A DNA stretch of 26,941 nucleotides from Actinomycetota bacterium. Lineage in GTDB: Bacteria > Actinomycetota > Actinomycetes > S36-B12 > UBA5976. The translations under genes were made by a program, and so were the position numbers. Below, piece after piece: positions 4,799 to 25,302 of the stretch. Within the stretch, counting starts at the first letter, position 1. The number at the start of each line of letters is the position of its first letter. The DNA is taken from positions 1-26,941 of the forward strand of contig JBDLQS010000054.1 of assembly GCA_039800445.1 (NCBI GenBank). The letters are read 5' to 3'. Under the pieces are notes generated by a model. It was not told the origin of the DNA. It worked only from the letters and a program-made list of their open reading frames with translations, and made no database searches.

Positions 4799-5818
4799 AT
4801 GACATCACACCTAAATCCCCCGCGCGCATCCATAAATTTTGTTTGGCAGCACCATAGAAATTACGCCTACATTCAGGAGCAAATATTTGACCTGATTGAA
4901 GCATGTTTGCCTAAGGGAACTGTGGTTCACACGGTTGGTGATGCCGTTGAAGGAGCCTTAAGCCTTTCTTTGTTCATCCGACAGAGTCGCGAGGAGATTG
5001 CTGCCACCCCTGCCGACATTGTGATGGCTCACGGAATTGCGGATAAGCGATACTTCTTTATTGTTGGCGGCGACGACTTACCATTAGTTAACAGTTGTAA
5101 ATACGTGTTTATTCCGGGCGATTGGCACGTTAATCGATTAGTTGAAGGTAGATTTCGTCGTAATCCAAAATATCAATTGACTTTGCAAGATAGCCAAATT
5201 CGCAAGGTGGGTTGGCTAAGACTTGATCCGATGATCGAGGCAACAAAGCGCTTAGCTCCAGCTACACATCGCAGGCTGAAAGTTTTGTGGGCACCAACTC
5301 ATAACACAATTTCAAGCACTAAATCAGACTCAGACTTATCCCCATCAAGTTTTCCAGCATTCAAAAAACATTTACCTTGGCTCTATTTGAAATATCAGAG
5401 TGATGTTTCGCTTCACCCTCGCAATCGAGGAACTAAAACTCCAACAACTGAGAAGTTGATTGCTAGCGATGTCGTCATTTCCGACTTTGGCACAATGGTG
5501 TTTGAAAGTTGGGCGCTTGGTAAACCAGTGATTTTTCCACGCTGGTGTATTGATGTGAAAACCTTGATGGAACGCAATCCACTCAGTGCTGAGGCATATA
5601 TCTATCGCAATCGAATTGGGCTGCACCCAGAAACTCCAAAAGAGATGCATCGAATGCTGCGTGATATAGATCGGATGCGATTTGAAGACCCAAACTTTGA
5701 TTCCCGCGGAACTGGCGTGGCAGAGTTCATTGATCACTACATTGATCCTGCGGAACGTGGTTTTGACGCCAAACGAACTGCACAGGAATTGATTTCAATT
5801 TTGAGTGAGGTCTCGTGA
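4799..5818 (+). CDS. CDP-glycerol glycerophosphotransferase (TagF/TagB-like, GT-B fold) family protein, paralog 1, 339 aa
   Basis: Ordered TagF-family motifs: AHGIADK (cf. HGTPLK), VGWLRLD (cf. GYPRND), VLWAPTH (cf. ILYAPT), LHPRN, SDVVISDFGTMVFESWALGKPVIF (cf. SDxLITDYSSxxFEFxxLxKPxIF). Confidence 0.75.
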   Translation: MTSHLNPPRASINFVWQHHRNYAYIQEQIFDLIEACLPKGTVVHTVGDAVEGALSLSLFIRQSREEIAATPADIVMAHGIADKRYFFIVGGDDLPLVNSCKYVFIPGDWHVNRLVEGRFRRNPKYQLTLQDSQIRKVGWLRLDPMIEATKRLAPATHRRLKVLWAPTHNTISSTKSDSDLSPSSFPAFKKHLPWLYLKYQSDVSLHPRNRGTKTPTTEKLIASDVVISDFGTMVFESWALGKPVIFPRWCIDVKTLMERNPLSAEAYIYRNRIGLHPETPKEMHRMLRDIDRMRFEDPNFDSRGTGVAEFIDHYIDPAERGFDAKRTAQELISILSEVS

Positions 5819-6921
5819 GTGAATCACTTAAACATGACTTAAAACCTGGTGCAATAAATTTTTGTTGGATCTACAGCAAGACATATGCAAATGTGCAAGA
5901 ACAGATTTTTAATCTAATCGAAGCTCAGTTGCCACCTGGTTCAGTAAGTCACTCAATTGAAGATGCAATAGAAGGTGCAGTAAACCTCTCACTATTTATT
6001 CGGCAAGGACGAGAGCTTGAAGATGCGCATCGGGTGCCAGCTGATGTGATTTTGGCTCATGGCATTGCAGATAAGCGTTACTTCTTCACCCAAGATTCAA
6101 CAACGTCACTGCCGCTGGCAAATGAATATGATTTTTTGCTGGTACCCGGTGCTTGGCACGTAAACCGATTGATCGAGGGTACGTACCGAAAGAACCCCCA
6201 CTACCAAATCAAAGTTTTGGAATCGCAAATCAAAAAGGTTGGTTGGTTGCGATTAGATGCATTATTTGAGGAAGCTAAAACTCGGGATAAAGAGCCACAT
6301 CATCGTCTGCGCTTACTTTGGGCTCCGACCCACAACGTAATCCCTCGCACAAATGAGCAAACTGTCGACGCACTTGCGCCATCCAGCCTTCCCGGATTTA
6401 AACCGCATGTTAAGCAAATGGCTGCAAGATACATCTTCCGCGTCTCACTGCATCCGCGAAATCGATCAGATCGAAAGCCAACTGGAAGTCAATTAGTTTG
6501 GTCAGATGTTGTGATTAGTGACTTTGGCACCATGGTTTACGAAGCTTGGGCGCTTGGCAAACCGGTAATCTTCCCGCGTTGGGCTATGGATGTTGACACC
6601 TTGATTAACCGAAATCCATTGAGTGCAGAGTCCTACATTTATCGAAATCGAATTGGTTTGCATCCGGAGTCGCTAGCCGAAATGCAAGACATGCTCGATC
6701 AAATCCAAAGACAGATTATTGGCAATCGTATTACGCGAACTCTGAAGCGATTTACTCGAATCAAGACACATCGCAAGGATGCAAGTGATCTTCGTGGGCC
6801 AGGGGTAAAGGAATTCATCGCGCACTATGTAGATCCTGAACAACAGGGAAACGATGCAAAGCGCACTGCAGATGTCCTAGTTGAAATTGCTAATCTACCT
6901 AAATACCAGAATTCAAAATAG
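5815..6921 (+). CDS. CDP-glycerol glycerophosphotransferase (TagF/TagB-like) family protein, paralog 2, 368 aa (GTG start overlapping the upstream TGA)
   Basis: Same motif set (AHGIADK, VGWLRLD, LLWAPTH, LHPRN, SDVVISDFGTMVYEAWALGKPVIF). Aligns end to end with paralog 1. GTGA overlap at 5815-5818. Confidence 0.75.
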   Translation: MSESLKHDLKPGAINFCWIYSKTYANVQEQIFNLIEAQLPPGSVSHSIEDAIEGAVNLSLFIRQGRELEDAHRVPADVILAHGIADKRYFFTQDSTTSLPLANEYDFLLVPGAWHVNRLIEGTYRKNPHYQIKVLESQIKKVGWLRLDALFEEAKTRDKEPHHRLRLLWAPTHNVIPRTNEQTVDALAPSSLPGFKPHVKQMAARYIFRVSLHPRNRSDRKPTGSQLVWSDVVISDFGTMVYEAWALGKPVIFPRWAMDVDTLINRNPLSAESYIYRNRIGLHPESLAEMQDMLDQIQRQIIGNRITRTLKRFTRIKTHRKDASDLRGPGVKEFIAHYVDPEQQGNDAKRTADVLVEIANLPKYQNSK

Positions 6922-16166: not shown

Positions 16167-16943
16167 ATGGGAAGAATCCGCACTCTCGTGGGCGATGTTG
16201 CGTATGACCTGTATGGTCACCGACTAACTTCCTCACTTCCACGCGATCAACTTCCCGCACATGTTGGTGTGATTCTGGATGGTAATCGTCGCTGGGCTGC
16301 TGAAATGGGTTCACCAAGTGCGCATGGACATCGGGCCGGTGGCGAGAAAATTGCTGAATTCCTGGGGTGGTGCGAAGAGCTCGGCGTTGAAGTTGTAACA
16401 CTTTGGTTGCTTTCGACTGACAACCTAATGCGAGAACCAACCGAATTAGACGCCTTGCTAGAAATCATCGAAGACACCGTTACTTCCCTGGGTGATACCG
16501 GTAGATGGCAAATCCATCCTGTTGGGGCGCTTGAACTCCTGCCTGAGCGAACTAAGGACTTACTCAATAAGACAAAGATAGCTACTGAGAATGTGCCGGG
16601 GCTGCTGGTCAATGTCGCTATTGGATATGGCGGCCGCCAAGAGGTGGTGGATGCAGTTAGATCTTTATTGCTCGAGGAATCTGCAGCAGGTAAATCACTT
16701 GATGAAGTTGCGGACAAAATTGATATCGAGCACATTGCTGCCCATCTCTATACCAAAGGTCAGCCTGATCCTGATCTGGTAATCAGAACTTCAGGTGAAC
16801 AAAGATTAAGTGGATTCTTATTGTGGCAAAGCGCTCACTCTGAGTTTTATTTCTGTGAGGCTTATTGGCCAAACTTTCGCCAAATTGATTTCTTGCGAGC
16901 TGTGCGCTCATATACAGCGCGAAACCGTAGGTTTGGAATTTAA
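16167..16943 (+). CDS. Cis-prenyltransferase (UppS family; Rv1086-like short-chain Z-isoprenyl diphosphate synthase), 258 aa
   Basis: [64 protein letters not shown] -10 7 nt upstream. Product chain length is not determinable from sequence. Confidence 0.92.
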
Positions 16944-19018
16944 CTGAAGACTCCAATTGAATTCTTAAGGCTTTGCAAATCCGTAGTTGGGGCATCACAA
17001 ACAAATCCCCGACAGACATATGCCGTAGGTTTACCTTCCACAACTTTTCGATTCACTAATAGTGGTTGGTCGCTGCCCCAGGCATAAACCATTCCAGGCG
17101 CAGTCCCCTTAGTTAATGCAGTCCGGAATTCAGAATCATTCGATCCAATAATCGCTACTTCACGTGGACCATCTAACCAAGTTGCGAACATAGCACTGCC
17201 CCAGCCGGCAAAGCGAGTATGTGATGCAACCAACGGAATCAGAGCTGGAATAAATTTTTCCGCCCAAGTTCGCATTTCAGTATCCCCAGATAGTGCAGAG
17301 TAAGTTAAGGCTGCATCGATGGTGGCTGCCCAACCTGATGGAGTTACGTTGTCGGTTGGATCCACTTGCCTAGTTGCGACATCCTTGGCTACCGGCTCAA
17401 CATCATTTGCTGTATCCGTTAAACCTGAGTCCTGTTGAAAATGATCCTTTATATCGTTAAGCAAAGTTCCAGCTAGTTCCCGCCAAACATCGTCACCATT
17501 TGTCTGAGCCAAGGACAAGAAGGCACTTGCTACCAATGCTTGATCTTCCAGAACACCAAGGGCATGTAGTCCAGCTTTACCATCGCGGGAAACTCTGACG
17601 AGTCTGCTTGGGTGCTTTGGATCAGCACCCAAGTGGGTGCTTACTAATAAATCAGCAGCACGTGTTGCGCACTCAATCCAGTCTTGGCGATTGCAAACAC
17701 TGCCCGCATCAACCAAAGCCCTGATGGCTAAACCATTCCAACTTGCAACGATTTTGTCGTCTCTGCCAGGGCGTGGCCTGACTGCTCGTGCCGTCAAAAG
17801 TTTTGCACGTAATGCATTCCATCTATCCCAATCATCTGGATCGCTATGGAGTGTGAGAACTGATTTCCCGTGTTCAAAAGTACCCACTTCAGTTACATTG
17901 CAAAGTTGGATAACCCAGTCTGCATCGGATGCCCCTTGTGAATCCGAACCAAGTGTTTCCCGAATTTGTTGTGGTGTCCAGGCATAGAACGCGCCTTCTT
18001 CTGAATGTCCAGTTTCCATGTCGATGCTGTCAGCATCAAGGGCAGCAGCAAATCCACCTTCTGAAGTCAGCATTTCACGAATTAAGAATTCGGCGGTTTC
18101 AGTAGTGATGCGCAATGCTTGCTCGGCACCTGTTAGGCGGTACAAGTGGGCATAAATCGAAAGTAGTTGGGCATTGTCATAGAGCATTTTTTCAAAGTGT
18201 GGAACGGTCCAAGTTGCATCTACGCTATAGCGCGCAAACCCACCACCAAGTTGGTCGTACATACCGCCTCGCGCCATGGCATTGCACGTGTGTTCAATCA
18301 TTTGCATGCCACGGAAATCTGGTTCACTGCCAGCGAGTCTTTGCAGCGCTTCATTTCGAAGCAAAAACTCAAGCACTAGTGAAGGTGGGAATTTTGGAGC
18401 GTCGCCGAATCCCCCATTAATTGGGTCAAACGAAGATGCCAATGAATCGAGGCCTGAAGTTACGGCAAATGAGATTTCATCTTTAGTGAAGTCAGATTTG
18501 GATTTAACAATTAGTTCGTTTCGAGATCCAATATGCTCCATGATTCTGGCCGAGGAATCATTTACTCGCTCTCGCTCACCTGTCCAAGTGTCATTGAGGG
18601 CAAGTAAGACCTGCGTAAATGACGGCATTCCGTGAGATGGGCGTGGTGGGAAATATGTTCCGGCATACCAAGGTCTGCGGTCATGGTCTAACCAAACTGA
18701 ATTTGGCCAACCGCCGTGGCCTGTCATAGCTTGGGTAGCTTCCATATACAAAGAATCAACCGCCGGTAGCTCTTCCCGATCAACTTTTATGTTGACGAAA
18801 TACTCATTCATCAAAGCTGCTACAGATGGATTCTCAAAGCTCTCGTGTGCCATCACATGACACCAGTGGCAAGCGCTGTAACCAACACTTAAAAAGATTG
18901 GGACATCGCGAGTTCGGGCAAGTTCAAATGCTTCTTCTGACCATGGGTACCAATCCACAGGATTGTCGGCATGCTGCAGTAAGTATGGCGATGTTGAGTC
19001 TACGAGGCGATTGGACAC
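16940..19018 (-). CDS. Thioredoxin-domain / six-hairpin glycosidase-like protein (YyaL/SSP411, DUF255), 692 aa
   Basis: NRL...[70 protein letters not shown]. Confidence 0.93.
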
Positions 19019-19029
19019 ACCTCATTGTT

Positions 19030-20235
19030 TCATTTCTCTTCAGTAATCAAAACTGGCCGGGAGATAATCACACCAGAGATAAGTTGCACAACCAAGGCAA
19101 CACCCAGTGCAAAGAATGCTGCTGACCATGAATTAGTAATGTCTCGCAAGAATCCCAGAGTCAAAGGACCCAATGCCGAAATCACATATCCCCCACCTTG
19201 CATAAAGGATCCTAAATCTCTTGCTGTTTCTGGCGTCCCCGACCGCAATAAAACTAAAGTCAAGGCAAGCGGAAATGACGATCCAAGTCCCACCCCTAGT
19301 AAGAAAACCCAAAGCCACGTGGCAGCTGGCCAGAGTCCATGGATTGCAAAGCTATAGATTCCAATGAGTCCAACCGCAAAGACGGCAACAAATCCAACAC
19401 ATAGGCCAACTTGAGATGTGTACTTGGCAGCAAGTGGTGGCACAAATAAGCCAGTAGGCAGTCCGATCAAAACTAATAGTGCAAGTTGATTTCCTGCCGT
19501 GACTGGATCCGTTCCGGCTTCGCGCAAAATAGTTGGTAACCAAGTATTCATTGAGTGGAAATTTATGGACTGGAATCCGAAGTACAAAGTCAAACTCCAA
19601 GCCAATGGATTTCGAACTAATGCCTTCATGTTGTGCGGAGTATCTAGGCGTACATCTTGGGAACCTGGATGCTTGTAGAAATGCCAAATAATCAAAACAA
19701 TGAGTGGCAGGATTGCCCATACCTCGAGGGCTTCGCGCCATGAACCTAATCGATCAGCAATCGGGTAGGTAATCAGCGCTGCCACCGCTGCAGAAAATGA
19801 AATTGCACCAGCGATCATCCCCATCACGCCACCAATACGTGTTGGAAAATCTCTTCGCGTAATTAGTGATGGCACAACATTTCCAACAGCAACACCAAGT
19901 CCGATGATTATGGTTCCTAAGTAAAGAACAACAACAAATGGAAGTAATCGAAGATGACCGCCGACTGCAAGAGCTAGCAGACTTAGTGTGATTGCTTTGT
20001 TTGGACTAATTCGATGAAGTAGACGCGGCACAAGAAGTGCACCAAGGCCAAACATAAGAATTGGAAGCGTGCTCAATAACGAGCCCGCTGTTGCCGATAG
20101 ACCAAAATCTTCACGAATCTCCGGTAGCACCGGACCTACAGAAGTTGTCAATGGGCGCAGCGTCATTGCGACAAAGAAAAGTGGCAGTGCCTTAATTATG
20201 AAATCTTGCTTTTCCAAGCTTTGATTTTGTGACAT
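19030..20235 (-). CDS. MFS transporter, CynX/NimT family, 401 aa
   Basis: ~12 TM helices; LRPLTTSVGPVL, GNVVPSLITRRDFP, LYFGFQS, WLPTIL, QGGGYVISALGP, LRDITNSW. Substrate unknown. Confidence 0.9.
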   Translation of the reverse strand: MSQNQSLEKQDFIIKALPLFFVAMTLRPLTTSVGPVLPEIREDFGLSATAGSLLSTLPILMFGLGALLVPRLLHRISPNKAITLSLLALAVGGHLRLLPFVVVLYLGTIIIGLGVAVGNVVPSLITRRDFPTRIGGVMGMIAGAISFSAAVAALITYPIADRLGSWREALEVWAILPLIVLIIWHFYKHPGSQDVRLDTPHNMKALVRNPLAWSLTLYFGFQSINFHSMNTWLPTILREAGTDPVTAGNQLALLVLIGLPTGLFVPPLAAKYTSQVGLCVGFVAVFAVGLIGIYSFAIHGLWPAATWLWVFLLGVGLGSSFPLALTLVLLRSGTPETARDLGSFMQGGGYVISALGPLTLGFLRDITNSWSAAFFALGVALVVQLISGVIISRPVLITEEK

Positions 20236-20302
20236 CTACAACTCCCAACGGTTCAAACCTAGTGGTCAACGAGTAATTGATTTGTTTGGGATGTAATGAA
20301 AT

Positions 20303-20563
20303 GACACCCACCCGTCCGACCTGATTTTCGACCCCACATTCGCCTGCTGGAACTTTCGCAGCGTCAATCGCCACTACTAACCCTCGCTGTTTATTTTGAC
20401 CATCTGGATCAAAGAACAGGCAGGACTTACTTCTAAACCGCACCGTGCTCAACGACCAAAAGTCGTCTTACGTGGACCGCTTTGCCTGCGGCTGGCATCG
20501 GCTTGTTGCAAACCAACTTCGAAGCACTGGTTTGCAACGCAATCACGGACCCGGGTGGGTGCC
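20303..20563 (-). ncRNA. raiA-motif structured RNA (~260 nt)
   Basis: - strand carries, in order, the blocks I recall for raiA RNAs: CGATGCCAGCCGCAGGCAAAGCGGTCCACGTAAG, TGAGCACGGTGCGGTTTAGAAGTAAGTCCTGCC, TTAGTAGTGG, GCGAAAGTTCCAGCAGGCGAATGTGGGGTC, CAGGTC. A 12-bp closing stem (GGCACCCACCCG/CGGGTGGGTGTC) and internal hairpins are visible. It lies directly downstream of comF, the canonical position. Confidence 0.92.
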
Positions 20564-20570
20564 GGCCTTT

Positions 20571-20576
20571 AGGTTA
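20571..20576 (-). promoter_or_regulatory. Candidate -10 (TAACCT) for the raiA RNA; includes the comF TAA stop
   Basis: Hexamer ends 7 nt before the first base of the RNA closing stem. Confidence 0.55.
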
Positions 20577-21194
20577 TCTGGTTTTTGGCGTGCCGCACAA
20601 AGTCAGTGCAAATATTCGTTGGGCGCCTGCAAATTTAAGTGCTTTCGCTGCACTATTCAAGGTGGCTCCAGTTGTAATGACATCGTCAACAATTACAACA
20701 GCTCCGTGCAAGGTTTTTCGAATGCCGAATGCGCCTTCTAGGTTGGCATGACGTTGCGAGGCTGATAATCCAACTTGATCTACAACCTGTCTGCGAAGAA
20801 ATAGATTTGCACCATCCACACTGATTGACTCATTGCCTCTTGCCAATCTGATGCAAAGATTTGCCACGGAATCAAAACCTCGTTCTCTCACCTTTTGTGG
20901 AGAGCTAGGGATTGGGATCAAGGTCAAGTCCTCAGATCTAAAGAATTTTTCATACGTACTTAACAAAATCTGCGACAGCATCTCGTTGTATCTAGCATCG
21001 CCATTCTTGTAGCAAATAATTGCGTCACGAAGCCAACCCGAATACTCACCTGCACAGAAACATGCCTCGAGTTCGCTTAAGTCCCTGGCTCTAAATGGCC
21101 TAATCGAATTGATACACGCAGCACAAAACTCAACCCCCAGGCGCGAGCAGATTAAACATCTGGGTGTAAATACCAACTGCTTTAGAACAGACAT
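20574..21194 (-). CDS. comF: ComF family protein (Zn-ribbon plus phosphoribosyltransferase), 206 aa
   Basis: CLIC...CAAC, ERGFD, QVGL...RHANL, VVIVDDVITTGATL; follows lpqB as in other actinobacteria. Confidence 0.92.
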   Translation of the reverse strand: MSVLKQLVFTPRCLICSRLGVEFCAACINSIRPFRARDLSELEACFCAGEYSGWLRDAIICYKNGDARYNEMLSQILLSTYEKFFRSEDLTLIPIPSSPQKVRERGFDSVANLCIRLARGNESISVDGANLFLRRQVVDQVGLSASQRHANLEGAFGIRKTLHGAVVIVDDVITTGATLNSAAKALKFAGAQRIFALTLCGTPKTR

Positions 21195-21267
21195 AAGCCA
21201 GCCTGAAACGAAAATCTCTATCTTTGAAATACTGGATCTGGATTTGTTGATAAATCTTGGGTGTTAA

Positions 21268-22965
21268 CTAATTTGAGAAAAATCCACCGATGCCAGAAGT
21301 AACTTGAGCCCAAGATCCGAAACTTTGCTGGAAAACTATTTGGTTTGCGCCATCAACAGCAGAAACAAATAGTTTTCCCATTCCATCTACCGAAATCTGT
21401 TGTGCACCGACAGGTGTACTGAACAACTTAGTTTTTCCATCAAGCAATGACACATCAAAAAGTAGTTCGCTCTTTGATTCATCTGAGCCAATAACTGCCA
21501 CTGAAGTCGGTGAACTCCAAACAATGTCGCGAACTGATGTGATGGATCGCTCGATTCGATGTAAGCCAATGATCCTGGTTTCTGAATCTGTCTTAAAAAT
21601 GGCTCCAACAGCAATTACATCTTGGATTCCGTTTGAAAGAACAACGGCTACTCGAACACCATCACTTGCCACTGCAACTTGCTTAACTTGATCATTAGTT
21701 CCTAGCGTTGATACGTCGACAAGCACAGGGCGTAATGTTCCATCACTTAAGACCTCACGTACCCCTTGGCCAGTATCTGAAAAATAGATGTTTCCATCTC
21801 GATCCCATGTTGGTTTAGAAATCTGATCCCCTTGCGCAACTACCCCAAAGTTTGATTCCGATGAGTTGGTTACCTGAAGAGATTTGCGATCCGCAGTGAC
21901 AGTTGCTATTCGGGTGCCAGTGGGATTTAGTGCTGCAAACACCAATGGCGCCGGGGCAATGTACTTTAAGTTATCCGACTCGTTTACAACAGAGAAGATC
22001 TTTTCGTTTCTAATCACATTTAGGTTCGTCATCGCAGAATTAGGTAATGTTGAAAGACTTTGCCAATCCTGAATGGTTTGGAGTGCTCCAAAGTTTGACA
22101 GTGCAAACGGTTGGCCTGAAACTGAAATCTGAACAGCTGAGACATTTGGCAGCACACTAAGTGTCCAAACCAATTGGGCGGAAATCGCCTGTCTTGTGGC
22201 TTCATCTGCGCCTAGGACTTCATTTGATAGATCTACCTGGGCAATCCCATTTGTAATTGGAACTGAACCATAGGTCAAAGTTGTGCCCACCGGGAAAGCA
22301 CTTGTTGCAACTGGGGATAGGTACGGTGATGGGCCATCAAGAAGTAACCGCACTAAAGTTGTCGCGGCACCGGAATTACTAACCGGCACCAAAACATTGT
22401 CAGTAATTAATGAATTCAACTCAGTATCAAAAAAGTAAATTGGGAAACTGCGGAAAGATCGATCTACGTCTCCAGTCGACAACAAAATTCCATCATTTAG
22501 TTTTGCAATTCGCCATTGTTCGCTTGAGTCTTGCGTTAACTCAAACGACTTGGACACCTGTGCACCCGGATCACTACTTTGATATCTACCTAAATCTGAA
22601 ATTGTTCCAAGTTTTCCAGCACTTAGCGTAATTGTTGGGGAGCTACCTGAGACTTCAATTGTTGAAGGGTCGTAAATCTCGATACCTGTCAGTGGATTCC
22701 AGCTCCCAGCAGATTCAGCCTCCAGGTACTGGCGAGCAATTCCATAATTATCCGACGGGTCTGCGCTTGCATCTAAGAATCCCCGCACAATCTCTTCTGG
22801 AGTCATTCCAACACTGGGTGGACGAGCAATTACTCTCACAAATTGCGCGGAAGTATCTGCAGAGATTTCCTCTCCGTAGTACACCTCACTAGAGTTTGGA
22901 ATTCCGGCACAGCCGGTAAGTAACATGACAAGTCCAAATAAACCGCCGGAAAGTTTTAACCTCAT
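21268..22965 (-). CDS. lpqB: Lipoprotein LpqB (GerMN plus beta-propeller), 565 aa
   Basis: Lipobox LLTGC; PEEIVRGFL, ARQYL, WRI, LLDGPS..L.P, QLVWTL, PTWD, SDGVRVA; directly after mtrB. Confidence 0.92.
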   Translation of the reverse strand: MRLKLSGGLFGLVMLLTGCAGIPNSSEVYYGEEISADTSAQFVRVIARPPSVGMTPEEIVRGFLDASADPSDNYGIARQYLEAESAGSWNPLTGIEIYDPSTIEVSGSSPTITLSAGKLGTISDLGRYQSSDPGAQVSKSFELTQDSSEQWRIAKLNDGILLSTGDVDRSFRSFPIYFFDTELNSLITDNVLVPVSNSGAATTLVRLLLDGPSPYLSPVATSAFPVGTTLTYGSVPITNGIAQVDLSNEVLGADEATRQAISAQLVWTLSVLPNVSAVQISVSGQPFALSNFGALQTIQDWQSLSTLPNSAMTNLNVIRNEKIFSVVNESDNLKYIAPAPLVFAALNPTGTRIATVTADRKSLQVTNSSESNFGVVAQGDQISKPTWDRDGNIYFSDTGQGVREVLSDGTLRPVLVDVSTLGTNDQVKQVAVASDGVRVAVVLSNGIQDVIAVGAIFKTDSETRIIGLHRIERSITSVRDIVWSSPTSVAVIGSDESKSELLFDVSLLDGKTKLFSTPVGAQQISVDGMGKLFVSAVDGANQIVFQQSFGSWAQVTSGIGGFFSN

Positions 22966-24515
22966 GGAGCACCTGCTGAAATTGCCACATCGGTAATTGC
23001 ACCCAATTCAAGGCGTGGAAGTGTTAACACAAACTGTGCCCCTTCATTTGGTGCTCCCCACACATCGATGATTCCGCCATGTAGAGCCGCGTCCTCTGCG
23101 GAAATTGAAAGTCCCAATCCGGTGCCTCCAAGAGTTCGCTGCCGAGCCGGATCCGCTCGCCAAAAGCGGCCGAAGACTCTCGAAAGGTCTTCTACGGCAA
23201 TACCTTGACCGTGATCTCTAACAGAAATTGAAACACATGATTCATTTCCTACAATTTCAACTTCAACATTGCTGCCATCACAATGCTCTATGGCATTCAC
23301 AATTAGATTTCGGATGATTCGAGAAACTCTTCGCTTATCCGCTGTCACAGTAGTGTCACCATGACTTGCAAACATAAATTTAGTTGAGTGCTCAGCTGCA
23401 ATTTCTTCATTATCACGCAAAATAATTTCAGTAATTACAGAAAGATCAACCGGCGCACTCTCTAGAGGTGAGGCACCCGCGTCAATTTTGCTCATCTCAA
23501 GTAAGTCACTCAAAAGTAAATCAAATCTGTCAACCTGGTTTCTCAGTAGTTCCGCTGATCTTGCCATGTCAGGATCAAAATCCGCTCGTGCGTTGTAAAT
23601 CATTTCGCTTGCCATTCGAACCGTTGTCAATGGCGTGCGCAGCTCATGAGATACGTCAGAAACGAACTGTTGCTGAATTTGAGATAGAGATTCCAGGCGA
23701 ATGATTTGGCTTTGCAAGCTAGTCGCCATTTCGTTAAACGAGCCAGCAAGTCGAGCAATATCATCCTCGCCATTTACCTGCATTCGCCGATCCAAGTCTC
23801 CAGATGCAATCTGGACCGCAATCTCGGCTGCCTCTCTGACTGGGTCAGTGACTCGTGCGGTAACAAACCATGCCAGTACCATCAAACTCACTAACAGAAT
23901 GATTCCTGTTGCCGCAACTCCTTGTTTTACCAGGTCAATAGTTCGTTGCTCATTATCAAGTGGGAATAACAAATACAGCTCGTATGCTCCCACTCGCGGA
24001 ATAGTAACTGGCGAACCAACAACAAGACCTGGAGAAGTAGCACCACCCTCGTAAATCAAGTTTGAATATGCCCAGGCTTGACGATCGCGTTCCCGAATTG
24101 CGGTTCTTAAAGTTTCAGGAATGGAGGCTTCTGAAATCAATTTAGTTCCACGCTCGGGCACGCCCACTAAATCTGGATCACTCAAGAACAAGGCGTCATA
24201 GATTCCCGGTGACCCAGCGCGCACGGCAAGGGCGGTGATTACAGAATCGACAAGTCTGGTGTTGTTCGGTGCTACGAGTCCGACATCGGAGGCATCAAGT
24301 AGTCGTTGAACTTCAAGTCTGGCAGCAGTTGCTTCGGTTAAGGCACTTTGTTGTTTCGCTTCAAGCAAACCTGAAGTCACTTGATTTACCAGAAGGATGC
24401 CAACAATACTCAAAACCGTTGCAGAGATTGCAAAGGTCAAAATGAGCAACCGAAACTGCAGGTTTCTTCTCCAACGGCTTCGGATCGAGGTCTTCTCTCG
24501 AGCTAGGGTGCTCAC
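22962..24515 (-). CDS. mtrB: Sensor histidine kinase MtrB, 517 aa
   Basis: Two TM helices, HAMP, FVSDVSHELRTPLTTVRMA, NLIVNA, VRDHG, RFWRADPARQRTLGGTGLGLSI; between mtrA and lpqB. Confidence 0.95.
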   Translation of the reverse strand: MSTLAREKTSIRSRWRRNLQFRLLILTFAISATVLSIVGILLVNQVTSGLLEAKQQSALTEATAARLEVQRLLDASDVGLVAPNNTRLVDSVITALAVRAGSPGIYDALFLSDPDLVGVPERGTKLISEASIPETLRTAIRERDRQAWAYSNLIYEGGATSPGLVVGSPVTIPRVGAYELYLLFPLDNEQRTIDLVKQGVAATGIILLVSLMVLAWFVTARVTDPVREAAEIAVQIASGDLDRRMQVNGEDDIARLAGSFNEMATSLQSQIIRLESLSQIQQQFVSDVSHELRTPLTTVRMASEMIYNARADFDPDMARSAELLRNQVDRFDLLLSDLLEMSKIDAGASPLESAPVDLSVITEIILRDNEEIAAEHSTKFMFASHGDTTVTADKRRVSRIIRNLIVNAIEHCDGSNVEVEIVGNESCVSISVRDHGQGIAVEDLSRVFGRFWRADPARQRTLGGTGLGLSISAEDAALHGGIIDVWGAPNEGAQFVLTLPRLELGAITDVAISAGAP

Positions 24516-24518
24516 AGC

Positions 24519-25196
24519 TTAGGTTTGCCCTGCCTTGTAGCCAACCCCTCGAACGGTGACAACAATTTCAGGATGCTCTGGATCGATCTCAATCTTTGCG
24601 CGAAGTCTTTGTACGTGAACATTTACCAGTCTGGTGTCAGCTGCATGTTGATATTCCCATACCTCTTCAAGTAAAGCCTCCCGTGAAAAAACCTGCCAAG
24701 GGCGTTTAGCAAGCGTGACTAGTAATTTGAATTCCAAAACCGTGAGCGGAATGTTTACTTCGCCACGTTTTACTCCATGACCAGCTACGTCAATTACTAA
24801 GTCGCCAACTTTAATTTCATTTACCACCGGTGCTTCGATGTTTCTTAAACGTGCTCGAATTCTGGCAATCAACTCTTCATTCTTGATTGGCTTCACGACA
24901 TAGTCGTCTGCTCCAGCTTCTAACCCGGTTACTACATCACTTGTGTCACTGCGGGCGGTCAACATAACAATTGGAACTCCACTTGATTCCCTAATTGCTC
25001 GACAAATCTCAACACCATCTCTACCTGGCAGCATTAAATCGAGTAAGACTAAATCTGGATTAACAACTTGAAAGGCATTGAGAGCCTGATTTCCATCAGC
25101 GCAGTATGAAACTTCAAAACCCTCTGCGCGCAGCAGAATACCTACGATCTCAGCAATGGATTGATCATCTTCGATGACCAAGATGCGCTGACCCAT
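24519..25196 (-). CDS. mtrA: Response regulator MtrA (start moved to ATG 25196; 225 aa)
   Basis: LLDLMLPG, VPIVMLTA, GADDYVVKP, REALLEEVW.Y..AADTRLVNVHVQRLRAKIE..PEHPEIVVTVRGVGYKAG; SD GGGAG upstream of 25196. Confidence 0.96.
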   Translation of the reverse strand: MGQRILVIEDDQSIAEIVGILLRAEGFEVSYCADGNQALNAFQVVNPDLVLLDLMLPGRDGVEICRAIRESSGVPIVMLTARSDTSDVVTGLEAGADDYVVKPIKNEELIARIRARLRNIEAPVVNEIKVGDLVIDVAGHGVKRGEVNIPLTVLEFKLLVTLAKRPWQVFSREALLEEVWEYQHAADTRLVNVHVQRLRAKIEIDPEHPEIVVTVRGVGYKAGQT

Positions 25197-25302
25197 TCCG
25201 GCACTCCCTATTAACACTGTTTGAATGCCAAATTTACCTCACGAATGAGAAACCTCGGTACCGATTGGAGTAATGCCTATAAACGTTGGCTAAACTGAGG
25301 TA

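Follow-up and report, generated by a model that had tools for sequence, protein, structure and literature searches.

A raiA/ModT RNA gene, probably stand-alone, kept next to comF after the loss of hpf in Candidatus Nanopelagicales

What becomes of a raiA RNA when the gene that gave it its name is no longer beside it? The raiA/ModT RNAs are among the most widespread structured RNAs of bacteria without a known biochemical function, and both the name and much speculation tie them to the neighbouring ribosome-hibernation factor. The stretch of DNA analysed here (the window, 26,941 nt) comes from a MAG of Candidatus Nanopelagicales whose close relatives are lake MAGs. A sequence-only reading placed an unannotated raiA RNA in the interval 20236–20576, which is exactly the intergenic region from the stop codon of a comF-family gene to the start codon of an MFS transporter gene. 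The best overall explanation of this interval, to which we assign a probability of about 0.82, is a stand-alone gene for a raiA/ModT structured non-coding RNA of 261 nt, read from 20563 to 20303 on the minus strand (Table 1).

Table 1. Features of the raiA locus and its surroundings in the window
Feature	Positions	Strand	Basis or remark
mtrA	24519–25217	-	MtrA NF040689, 358.9 bits (cut-off 300)
mtrB	22962–24515	-	Profile match, upstream of comF
lpqB	21268–22965	-	Domains PF10647/PF10646
comF-family phosphoribosyltransferase-fold gene	20574–21194	-	TIGR00201 positions 1–189 of 190, E = 2e-22
Weak -35-like TTGTGC	20595–20600	-	Sequence reading; within the coding part of comF, 18 nt before the -10
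Candidate RNA -10 box TAACCT	20571–20576	-	Overlaps the comF stop codon TAA
Predicted full transcript, 261 nt	20303–20563	-	Rfam match plus 4-bp P1 extension
raiA/ModT RNA, P2+P8 subtype	20307–20559	-	RF03072 match
Conserved single-stranded PK1–P6 linker UUAGAAGUAA	20427–20436	-	Covariance-model match, 32-copy alignment
U-rich tract AUUUCAUU, immediately following the 3' strand of P1	20295–20302	-	Congener alignment
MFS promoter motif CCACTAGGTT, with -10 TAGGTT at 20261–20256	20256–20265	-	Congener alignment
MFS Shine-Dalgarno GGGAG	20242–20246	-	Sequence reading
MFS_1 transporter, CynX/NimT-like	19030–20235	-	Profile matches
DUF255 thioredoxin-domain protein	16940–19018	-	Profile match, beyond the MFS gene

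The element is a bona fide raiA RNA. In a cmscan search against Rfam 15 the whole raiA model (RF03072, model positions 1–209, untruncated) is matched with 150.6 bits (E = 7e-38), well over the gathering cut-off of 101.3 bits; this is the single gathering-level match to Rfam within the window, and one copy is found in the entire 0.96-Mb MAG. The apparently complete RNA of ~260 nt proposed from the letters is thus confirmed, its length coming to 261 nt once the closing stem P1, which exceeds the Rfam model by 4 bp, is counted in full (5' GGCA at 20560–20563 with 3' UGUC at 20303–20306, in the MFE fold). The additional pairs form in 30 of 31 congeners, five congeners showing a compensatory change from A-U to G-C, and the P1 pairs 1–261, 5–257 and 7–255 change from C-G to U-A in three to eight congeners. 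The RNA departs from the model by two inserted elements, a P2 hairpin of 34 nt and an extended P6/P7 arm, and these assign it to the P2+P8 subtype represented by Ns-raiA of Nocardioides sp. Iso805N, with which it shares P1 with its conserved bulges, the P2 hairpin, P3–P8 and the linker UUAGA(A/C)GUAA between PK1 and P6, the proposed KhpA/KhpB site (PMC12968392). Eight of the ten positions of this linker, UUAGAAGUAA, are invariant in 32 congeners and the other two nearly so. The core sequence blocks are invariant in all 32 copies; the pseudoknots PK1 and PK2, which would form the compact core, lie outside RNAalifold and the covariance model. Mechanical open reading frames overlap the RNA at 20192–20452 (minus strand) and at 20396–20572, 20445–20741 and 20482–20751 (plus strand). 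Three spurious ORFs had been noted over the RNA, and indeed each of the six frames is interrupted somewhere among the 32 congeneric copies, which rules out a protein-coding reading of the interval.

The neighbourhood is as first described: the RNA follows comF, the Rfam match beginning 14 nt after its stop codon, and is itself followed after 71 nt by a CynX-type MFS gene in place of raiA/hpf, all on one strand. The comF-family gene matches TIGR00201 (ComF) over its full length, yet under the curated cut-off, and contains the PRTase domain. Elsewhere in the window (4799–6921, plus strand), typA/bipA and a metallophosphoesterase gene enclose two adjacent open reading frames (339 and 368 aa), for which Pfam gave no match at E ≤ 0.001. 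In published work, raiA RNAs lie downstream of comFC in 74% of cases and upstream of raiA/hpf in 66%, contexts that are typical and not defining (PMC10861870); the window shows the first and lacks the second. As in many Actinomycetota, the RNA stands after comF on the same strand and downstream of mtrA-mtrB-lpqB (PMC10861870). It differs from that family in its P1, longer than in the model by the pairs described above, in the absence of hpf/raiA downstream or anywhere in near-complete relatives, and in its host, a streamlined planktonic actinobacterium (~1.4–1.8 Mb) that yielded no GGDEF gene.

Whether hpf has been lost or merely moved can be judged from the relatives, all of which are MAGs; its absence is based on these genomes together with the deletion seen at the locus itself. 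No match to PF02482 (S30AE) was found in the host MAG, which is 60.5% complete. Among 41 species genomes of the genus, 33 carry the RNA and seven carry PF02482/hpf. Ten RNA-bearing congeners that are 90–98% complete (G001, G003, G011, G021, G023, G044, G045, G046, G047 and G053) have no S30AE gene anywhere, and one of them, G011, is assembled in only eight contigs. Searches with the HPF protein of a congener returned nothing in five of these ten, and as a positive control the same query found HPFs of 51–62% identity in other congeners. hpf is therefore missing genome-wide in near-complete RNA-bearing relatives, lost and not relocated, as had been supposed.

This combination is rare. In 150 genomes drawn evenly from the class, each at least 90% complete, hpf is present in 140 and the RNA in 76, and only two of these 76 lack hpf; the tallies include two unpublished genomes, G131 and G138, both with RNA and hpf, whose removal changes nothing material. 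The two exceptions, G114 and G148, belong to one other genus of small genomes (1.4–1.7 Mb) in another family, and constitute an independent case of RNA without hpf. In G148 the order is lpqB-comF-raiA RNA-secA, with hpf excised (locus L138, C86:1257–7491); the RNA scores 165 bits, and no S30AE gene was found in this genome.

Within the family (93 genomes, eight genera) the RNA is found in 33 of 41 genomes of the present genus, in 3 of 19 of one other genus and in none of 33 from the remaining six, and hpf is common outside this genus. A distribution of this kind allows speculation that raiA RNA and HPF are alternative, partly redundant answers to one ribosome task in growth arrest, in which case streamlined genomes could afford only one of the two. 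Among the 29 family genomes that are at least 90% complete, ten have the RNA only, eight have hpf only and just four have both; against redundancy, seven keep neither, and kinship between the genomes inflates the pattern. We consider this explanation quite unlikely.

Missing genes must be read with care in such data. Six genomes of the genus have neither RNA nor hpf, but all are at most 83% complete, and we count them as assembly gaps and not as true losses; in two of them, G016 and G020, lpqB lies at a contig end. Contigs break at or beside the raiA locus in G016 (C43), G020 (C157), G064 (C21), G054 (C25) and G049 (C64), so 'missing RNA' calls in MAGs need care; near-identical RNAs in co-occurring species may fragment metagenome assemblies at this locus. 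A partial RNA match in G064 (77 bits) was considered as a decaying relic beside hpf and set aside, as the contig ends exactly at the match.

The history of the locus was reconstructed from 34 congeneric loci, oriented and mapped with the proteins of the window and Pfam, and from a tree of a single gene, the bipA codon alignment, for which four genomes of the same order but of other families served as root. One genome without a bipA match (G004) and five with a partial bipA (G006, G015, G043, G050 and G054) were left out of the tree. The order comF-RNA-hpf is still present in five congeners. In G009, G017 and G051 hpf converges on an AlkZ-like gene beyond which lies the MFS gene, and in G013 (with a SOUL-domain gene) and G018 hpf is followed by another gene. 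In G003, G047 and G052 hpf is cleanly gone and the RNA abuts the convergent AlkZ-like gene, with gaps of 20–55 nt; in G002, G006, G010, G023 and G056 it abuts a convergent FMN-binding (FMN_bind_2) or UppS gene, with gaps down to ~5 nt. In the window and 19 relatives the MFS gene begins 43–101 nt after the RNA. The tally of downstream genes suggested at the outset thus yields MFS, hpf, AlkZ-like, FMN_bind_2 and UppS genes within one genus. As comF-RNA-hpf occurs in the basal congeners, the arrangement of the window results from a deletion of hpf together with the AlkZ-like gene.

In the bipA tree, the group formed by the RNA–MFS clade and the FMN/UppS genomes has a support of 100, as does the pair G047 and G052, and G003 is the sister of the hpf-bearing G051 and G017 (supports 100 and 98); deeper nodes are weakly supported. 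Combined with the synteny maps, this topology shows at least three losses of hpf in lineages that kept the RNA: in clade A, where the MFS gene follows the RNA, with its sister group, in G047 and G052, and in G003 relative to G051 and G017. The reverse also occurred once. A clade of G042 with G008 and G024 (support 100) has mtrA-comF-hpf without the RNA, the gap between comF and hpf being only 165 nt; a sensitive re-search for the RNA in G008, G042, G024, G016 and G020 gave 14.7 bits at best. All four combinations of RNA and hpf, the incomplete genomes with neither included, are therefore found in one genus at loci that are otherwise collinear.

From the RNA-less clade mtrB and lpqB are missing as well (G008, G042 and probably G024; loci L085, G008:C3:5225–17512, and L086, G042:C13:47558–59845). 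Its MtrA passes the NCBIfam equivalog cut-off (311.6 against 300), with comF and hpf directly downstream of it, and PF10647 has no match anywhere in genomes of this clade that are 95–97% complete. This orphan MtrA, with MtrB and LpqB lost along with the RNA, is found in one lineage only. A general dependency of the RNA on LpqB was considered after this co-loss and rejected: LpqB, itself patchy, is kept in many genera without the RNA.

Could the RNA that outlived hpf be a functionless relic in decay? Its usual downstream partner is gone, and the family sheds the RNA easily, as its absence from all genomes of the six sister genera illustrates. The conservation data lead us to reject the idea, to which we give practically no credence. 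In 32 congeneric copies 132 of 261 columns are invariant, and RNAalifold recovers a raiA-like fold with compensatory changes in 26 of 76 consensus pairs. Within the hpf-less clade the RNAs are on average 95.2% identical in pairwise comparison, against 83.3% for the highly conserved bipA of the same clade and 57.0% at its third codon positions. The mean Rfam score is 150.2 bits both in genomes with hpf (n = 5) and in those without (n = 27). The RNA was moreover retained through each of the hpf losses counted above and is present in environmental RNA libraries. After the loss of hpf it is thus under strong and undiminished structural selection.

A second possibility is that the RNA is a cis-acting, riboswitch-like 5' UTR of the CynX-type MFS gene. 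The two are close and on one strand, no canonical terminator separates them, and Rfam labels the family 'Cis-reg; riboswitch'. The adjacency, however, is derived: in 13 of 32 mapped congeners the next gene is either hpf (5) or a convergent AlkZ-like, FMN-binding or UppS gene (8), and conservation of the RNA is unchanged whatever lies downstream. The constant, co-oriented downstream gene expected of a riboswitch is not found within the genus, nor did 20100–20800 contain a terminator-like hairpin that could form part of an expression platform (terminator/antiterminator or sequestration of the Shine-Dalgarno).

The MFS gene also has signals of its own, as first noted. GGGAG or a close variant precedes its start codon across clade A and lies, in the window, downstream of the gene's own -10 motif. 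A TANNNT -10 (TAGGTT or a close variant) is found in 18 of 18 clade-A genomes, with CC[AG]C upstream of it in 16, and a near-identical CC[AG]CTA[GA]NGT precedes the MFS gene also where a divergent AlkZ-like gene stands before it. The motif, seen also in L056, L072, L076, L079, L082 and L074, accompanies the MFS gene whatever the arrangement. It is thus older than the fusion, and the transporter appears to have brought its own promoter to the junction. This motif could be the -10 region of the MFS gene or an operator for a regulator. RNA-only contigs ending at P1 (see below) and the experimental exclusion of a cis role in clostridia (PMC10861870, PMC11706538) point in the same direction. That the RNA exists only as the 5' UTR of the MFS mRNA, the outcome named beforehand as fatal to a separate RNA gene, is disfavoured by the variety of downstream genes, and a cis-acting leader appears very improbable.

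Evidence for a promoter of the RNA itself comes from conservation and from the ends of environmental contigs. A generic scan of 20100–20800 for E. coli-type sigma-70 promoters and terminators called no promoter and no terminator hairpin, so the promoter argument depends on these two lines only. The candidate -10 proposed for the RNA proved to be conserved: TANNNT is present in 31 of 31 congeners, 10–13 nt before the Rfam start and 6–9 nt before the extended P1. The hexamer TTGTGC would be the corresponding -35, its conservation being confounded with the coding constraint on comF. At the other end, nearly all congeners have a stretch rich in U just behind P1, and in the window the tract AUUUCAUU is likely to be a determinant of the 3' end. 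Hairpin terminators follow the RNA in G003, G017 and G051 and recall ModT(L); the window itself has no read-through into a hairpin terminator of the ModT(L) type (PMC11706538).

The RNA is found in freshwater metatranscriptomes as RNA-only contigs. Nineteen freshwater, riverine or estuarine RNA runs contain 12–15% of the sampled words of the window section 19900–21200, and a twentieth, of uncertain type, contains 21% (20 runs, 17 studies). The RNA makes up 253 of the 1301 nt of this section (19%), and a word content of 12–15% is about what the RNA by itself would give. Metatranscriptome contigs from four studies were compared, contigs as such fixing neither ends nor strand nor level. In three studies, contigs of ~99% identity cover the RNA only, at 20303–20563 (a 266-nt contig), 20305–20545 and 20309–20555; the last has a word depth of 583 and runs into the Illumina adapter directly at its 20555 end. 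In the fourth, a contig of a 94%-identical relative continues from the RNA into comF. The flanks are nearly uncovered, a single 84-nt contig of a relative lying on the 5' part of the MFS gene at depth 2; we do not take this as proof that comF and MFS are silent, since the flanks are simply uncovered. RNA-only contigs whose limits agree with the predicted ends, in three studies, give a consistent hint of a discrete species of ~260 nt.

These data also bear on the possibility that the RNA has no promoter and is the processed 3' end of an mtrA-mtrB-lpqB-comF transcript, with a function tied to comF. The short distance to comF, its adjacency in each of the 31 congeneric loci with assembled upstream sequence, and the relative's contig spanning the 3' end of comF and the RNA, which may reflect co-transcription or DNA carry-over, all speak for it. 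Yet TANNNT keeps its fixed distance from the extended P1 despite differing comF stop codons and C-termini, the high-depth contigs end at 20555–20563, in one case straight at an adapter, a northern blot shows an independent transcript in Clostridium acetobutylicum (PMC10861870), and the clade without the RNA kept comF. We regard such a tail of comF as unlikely. The overlap of the -10 box with the comF stop codon gives a structural reason for the linkage of the two. A tighter link of the RNA to comF/MtrAB-LpqB than to hpf, as first suggested, is so far one of synteny only; LpqB is present in many RNA-less relatives.

The closest experimental parallels to a stand-alone RNA are the raiA RNA of C. 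acetobutylicum and ModT of C. difficile, discrete and abundant transcripts beside comFC, to which the RNA of the window may be likened (PMC10861870, PMC11706538). In clostridia raiA/ModT is very abundant, acts in trans, as shown by complementation, and has effects on the stationary-phase transition, on sporulation, on aggregation and, for C. difficile, on the level of c-di-GMP (PMC10861870, PMC11706538). C. acetobutylicum, like the window, has no raiA immediately downstream, gntR standing there. Unlike that of the window, the clostridial RNAs have no P2, and nothing in the lineage studied here obviously corresponds to the phenotypes seen in clostridia (sporulation, aggregation, c-di-GMP rise, toxin production). 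Trans action, demonstrated for the clostridial RNAs themselves, is for the window an inference by analogy, to which the variable downstream genes would lend indirect support.

The following model can be proposed. A sigma-A-type promoter of its own, with TAACCT over the comF stop codon as -10, most likely drives the RNA; the long closing helix P1 and the U-rich tract would set its 3' end, and the product would accumulate as a discrete, abundant species. From an arrangement in which comF-RNA-hpf converged on AlkZ-MFS, the ancestor of the sub-clade deleted hpf and the AlkZ-like gene, a deletion that joined the 3' flank of the RNA to the MFS gene's own promoter. The RNA presumably acts in trans, like its clostridial homologues, probably as a compact protein-binding RNA that uses its exposed UUAGAAGUAA linker and P1 arm and tunes growth-state transitions. 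Its activity here would be independent of HPF and, it appears, also of c-di-GMP synthesis and sporulation. That the RNA is at once stand-alone, trans-acting and independent of HPF is, in our view, probable.

As to a protein partner, the raiA fold has a compact core from which the P1 arm protrudes, with the conserved linker exposed, and KhpA-KhpB binds raiA RNA at ~2 uM (PMC12968392). KhpA and a KhpB-like gene with KH and R3H domains are present in the genus; both are also kept in G042, which has lost the RNA, so their presence says little. A KhpA/B ribonucleoprotein as the working form of the RNA is a possible but rather doubtful proposal.

c-di-GMP is the sole pathway so far tied mechanistically to ModT. 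A search of five congeners of 92–98% completeness (G011, G045, G001, G018 and G042) gave no GGDEF-domain gene, so the lineage appears unable to make c-di-GMP. To our knowledge, Nanopelagicales are non-sporulating planktonic cells. With hpf lost at least three times, no GGDEF gene and no sporulation, none of the three can be obligatory in the core mechanism of the RNA, and on the best reading their links to it in clostridia are downstream or lineage-specific. The search is thereby narrowed to functions common to clostridia and a minimal planktonic actinobacterium.

The RNA family, its action in trans and its non-adjacency to raiA in a third of cases, C. acetobutylicum included, were already known. 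Trans action having been published for clostridia (PMC10861870, PMC11706538), the present case adds support and is not its discovery. The present analysis contributes the tree-based count of hpf losses, the reciprocal loss of the RNA, the rarity of RNA without hpf in the class, the finding that GGDEF genes are absent, the conserved promoter motif, the longer P1 and the environmental RNA evidence. The genus usefully constrains the function of the RNA and lends itself well to comparison, but the element is not of a new kind.

The HPF proteins of the family are themselves diverse. Those of the present genus are ~210 aa long and have the C-terminal dimerization domain. In sister genera many S30AE matches lie in open frames of ~103–150 aa (for example G060:C12:37727–38014, and in G061, G063 and G084); judged by their length, these would be short HPF/YfiA-like forms without that domain. 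The S30AE copy of G078 carries two in-frame TGA codons.
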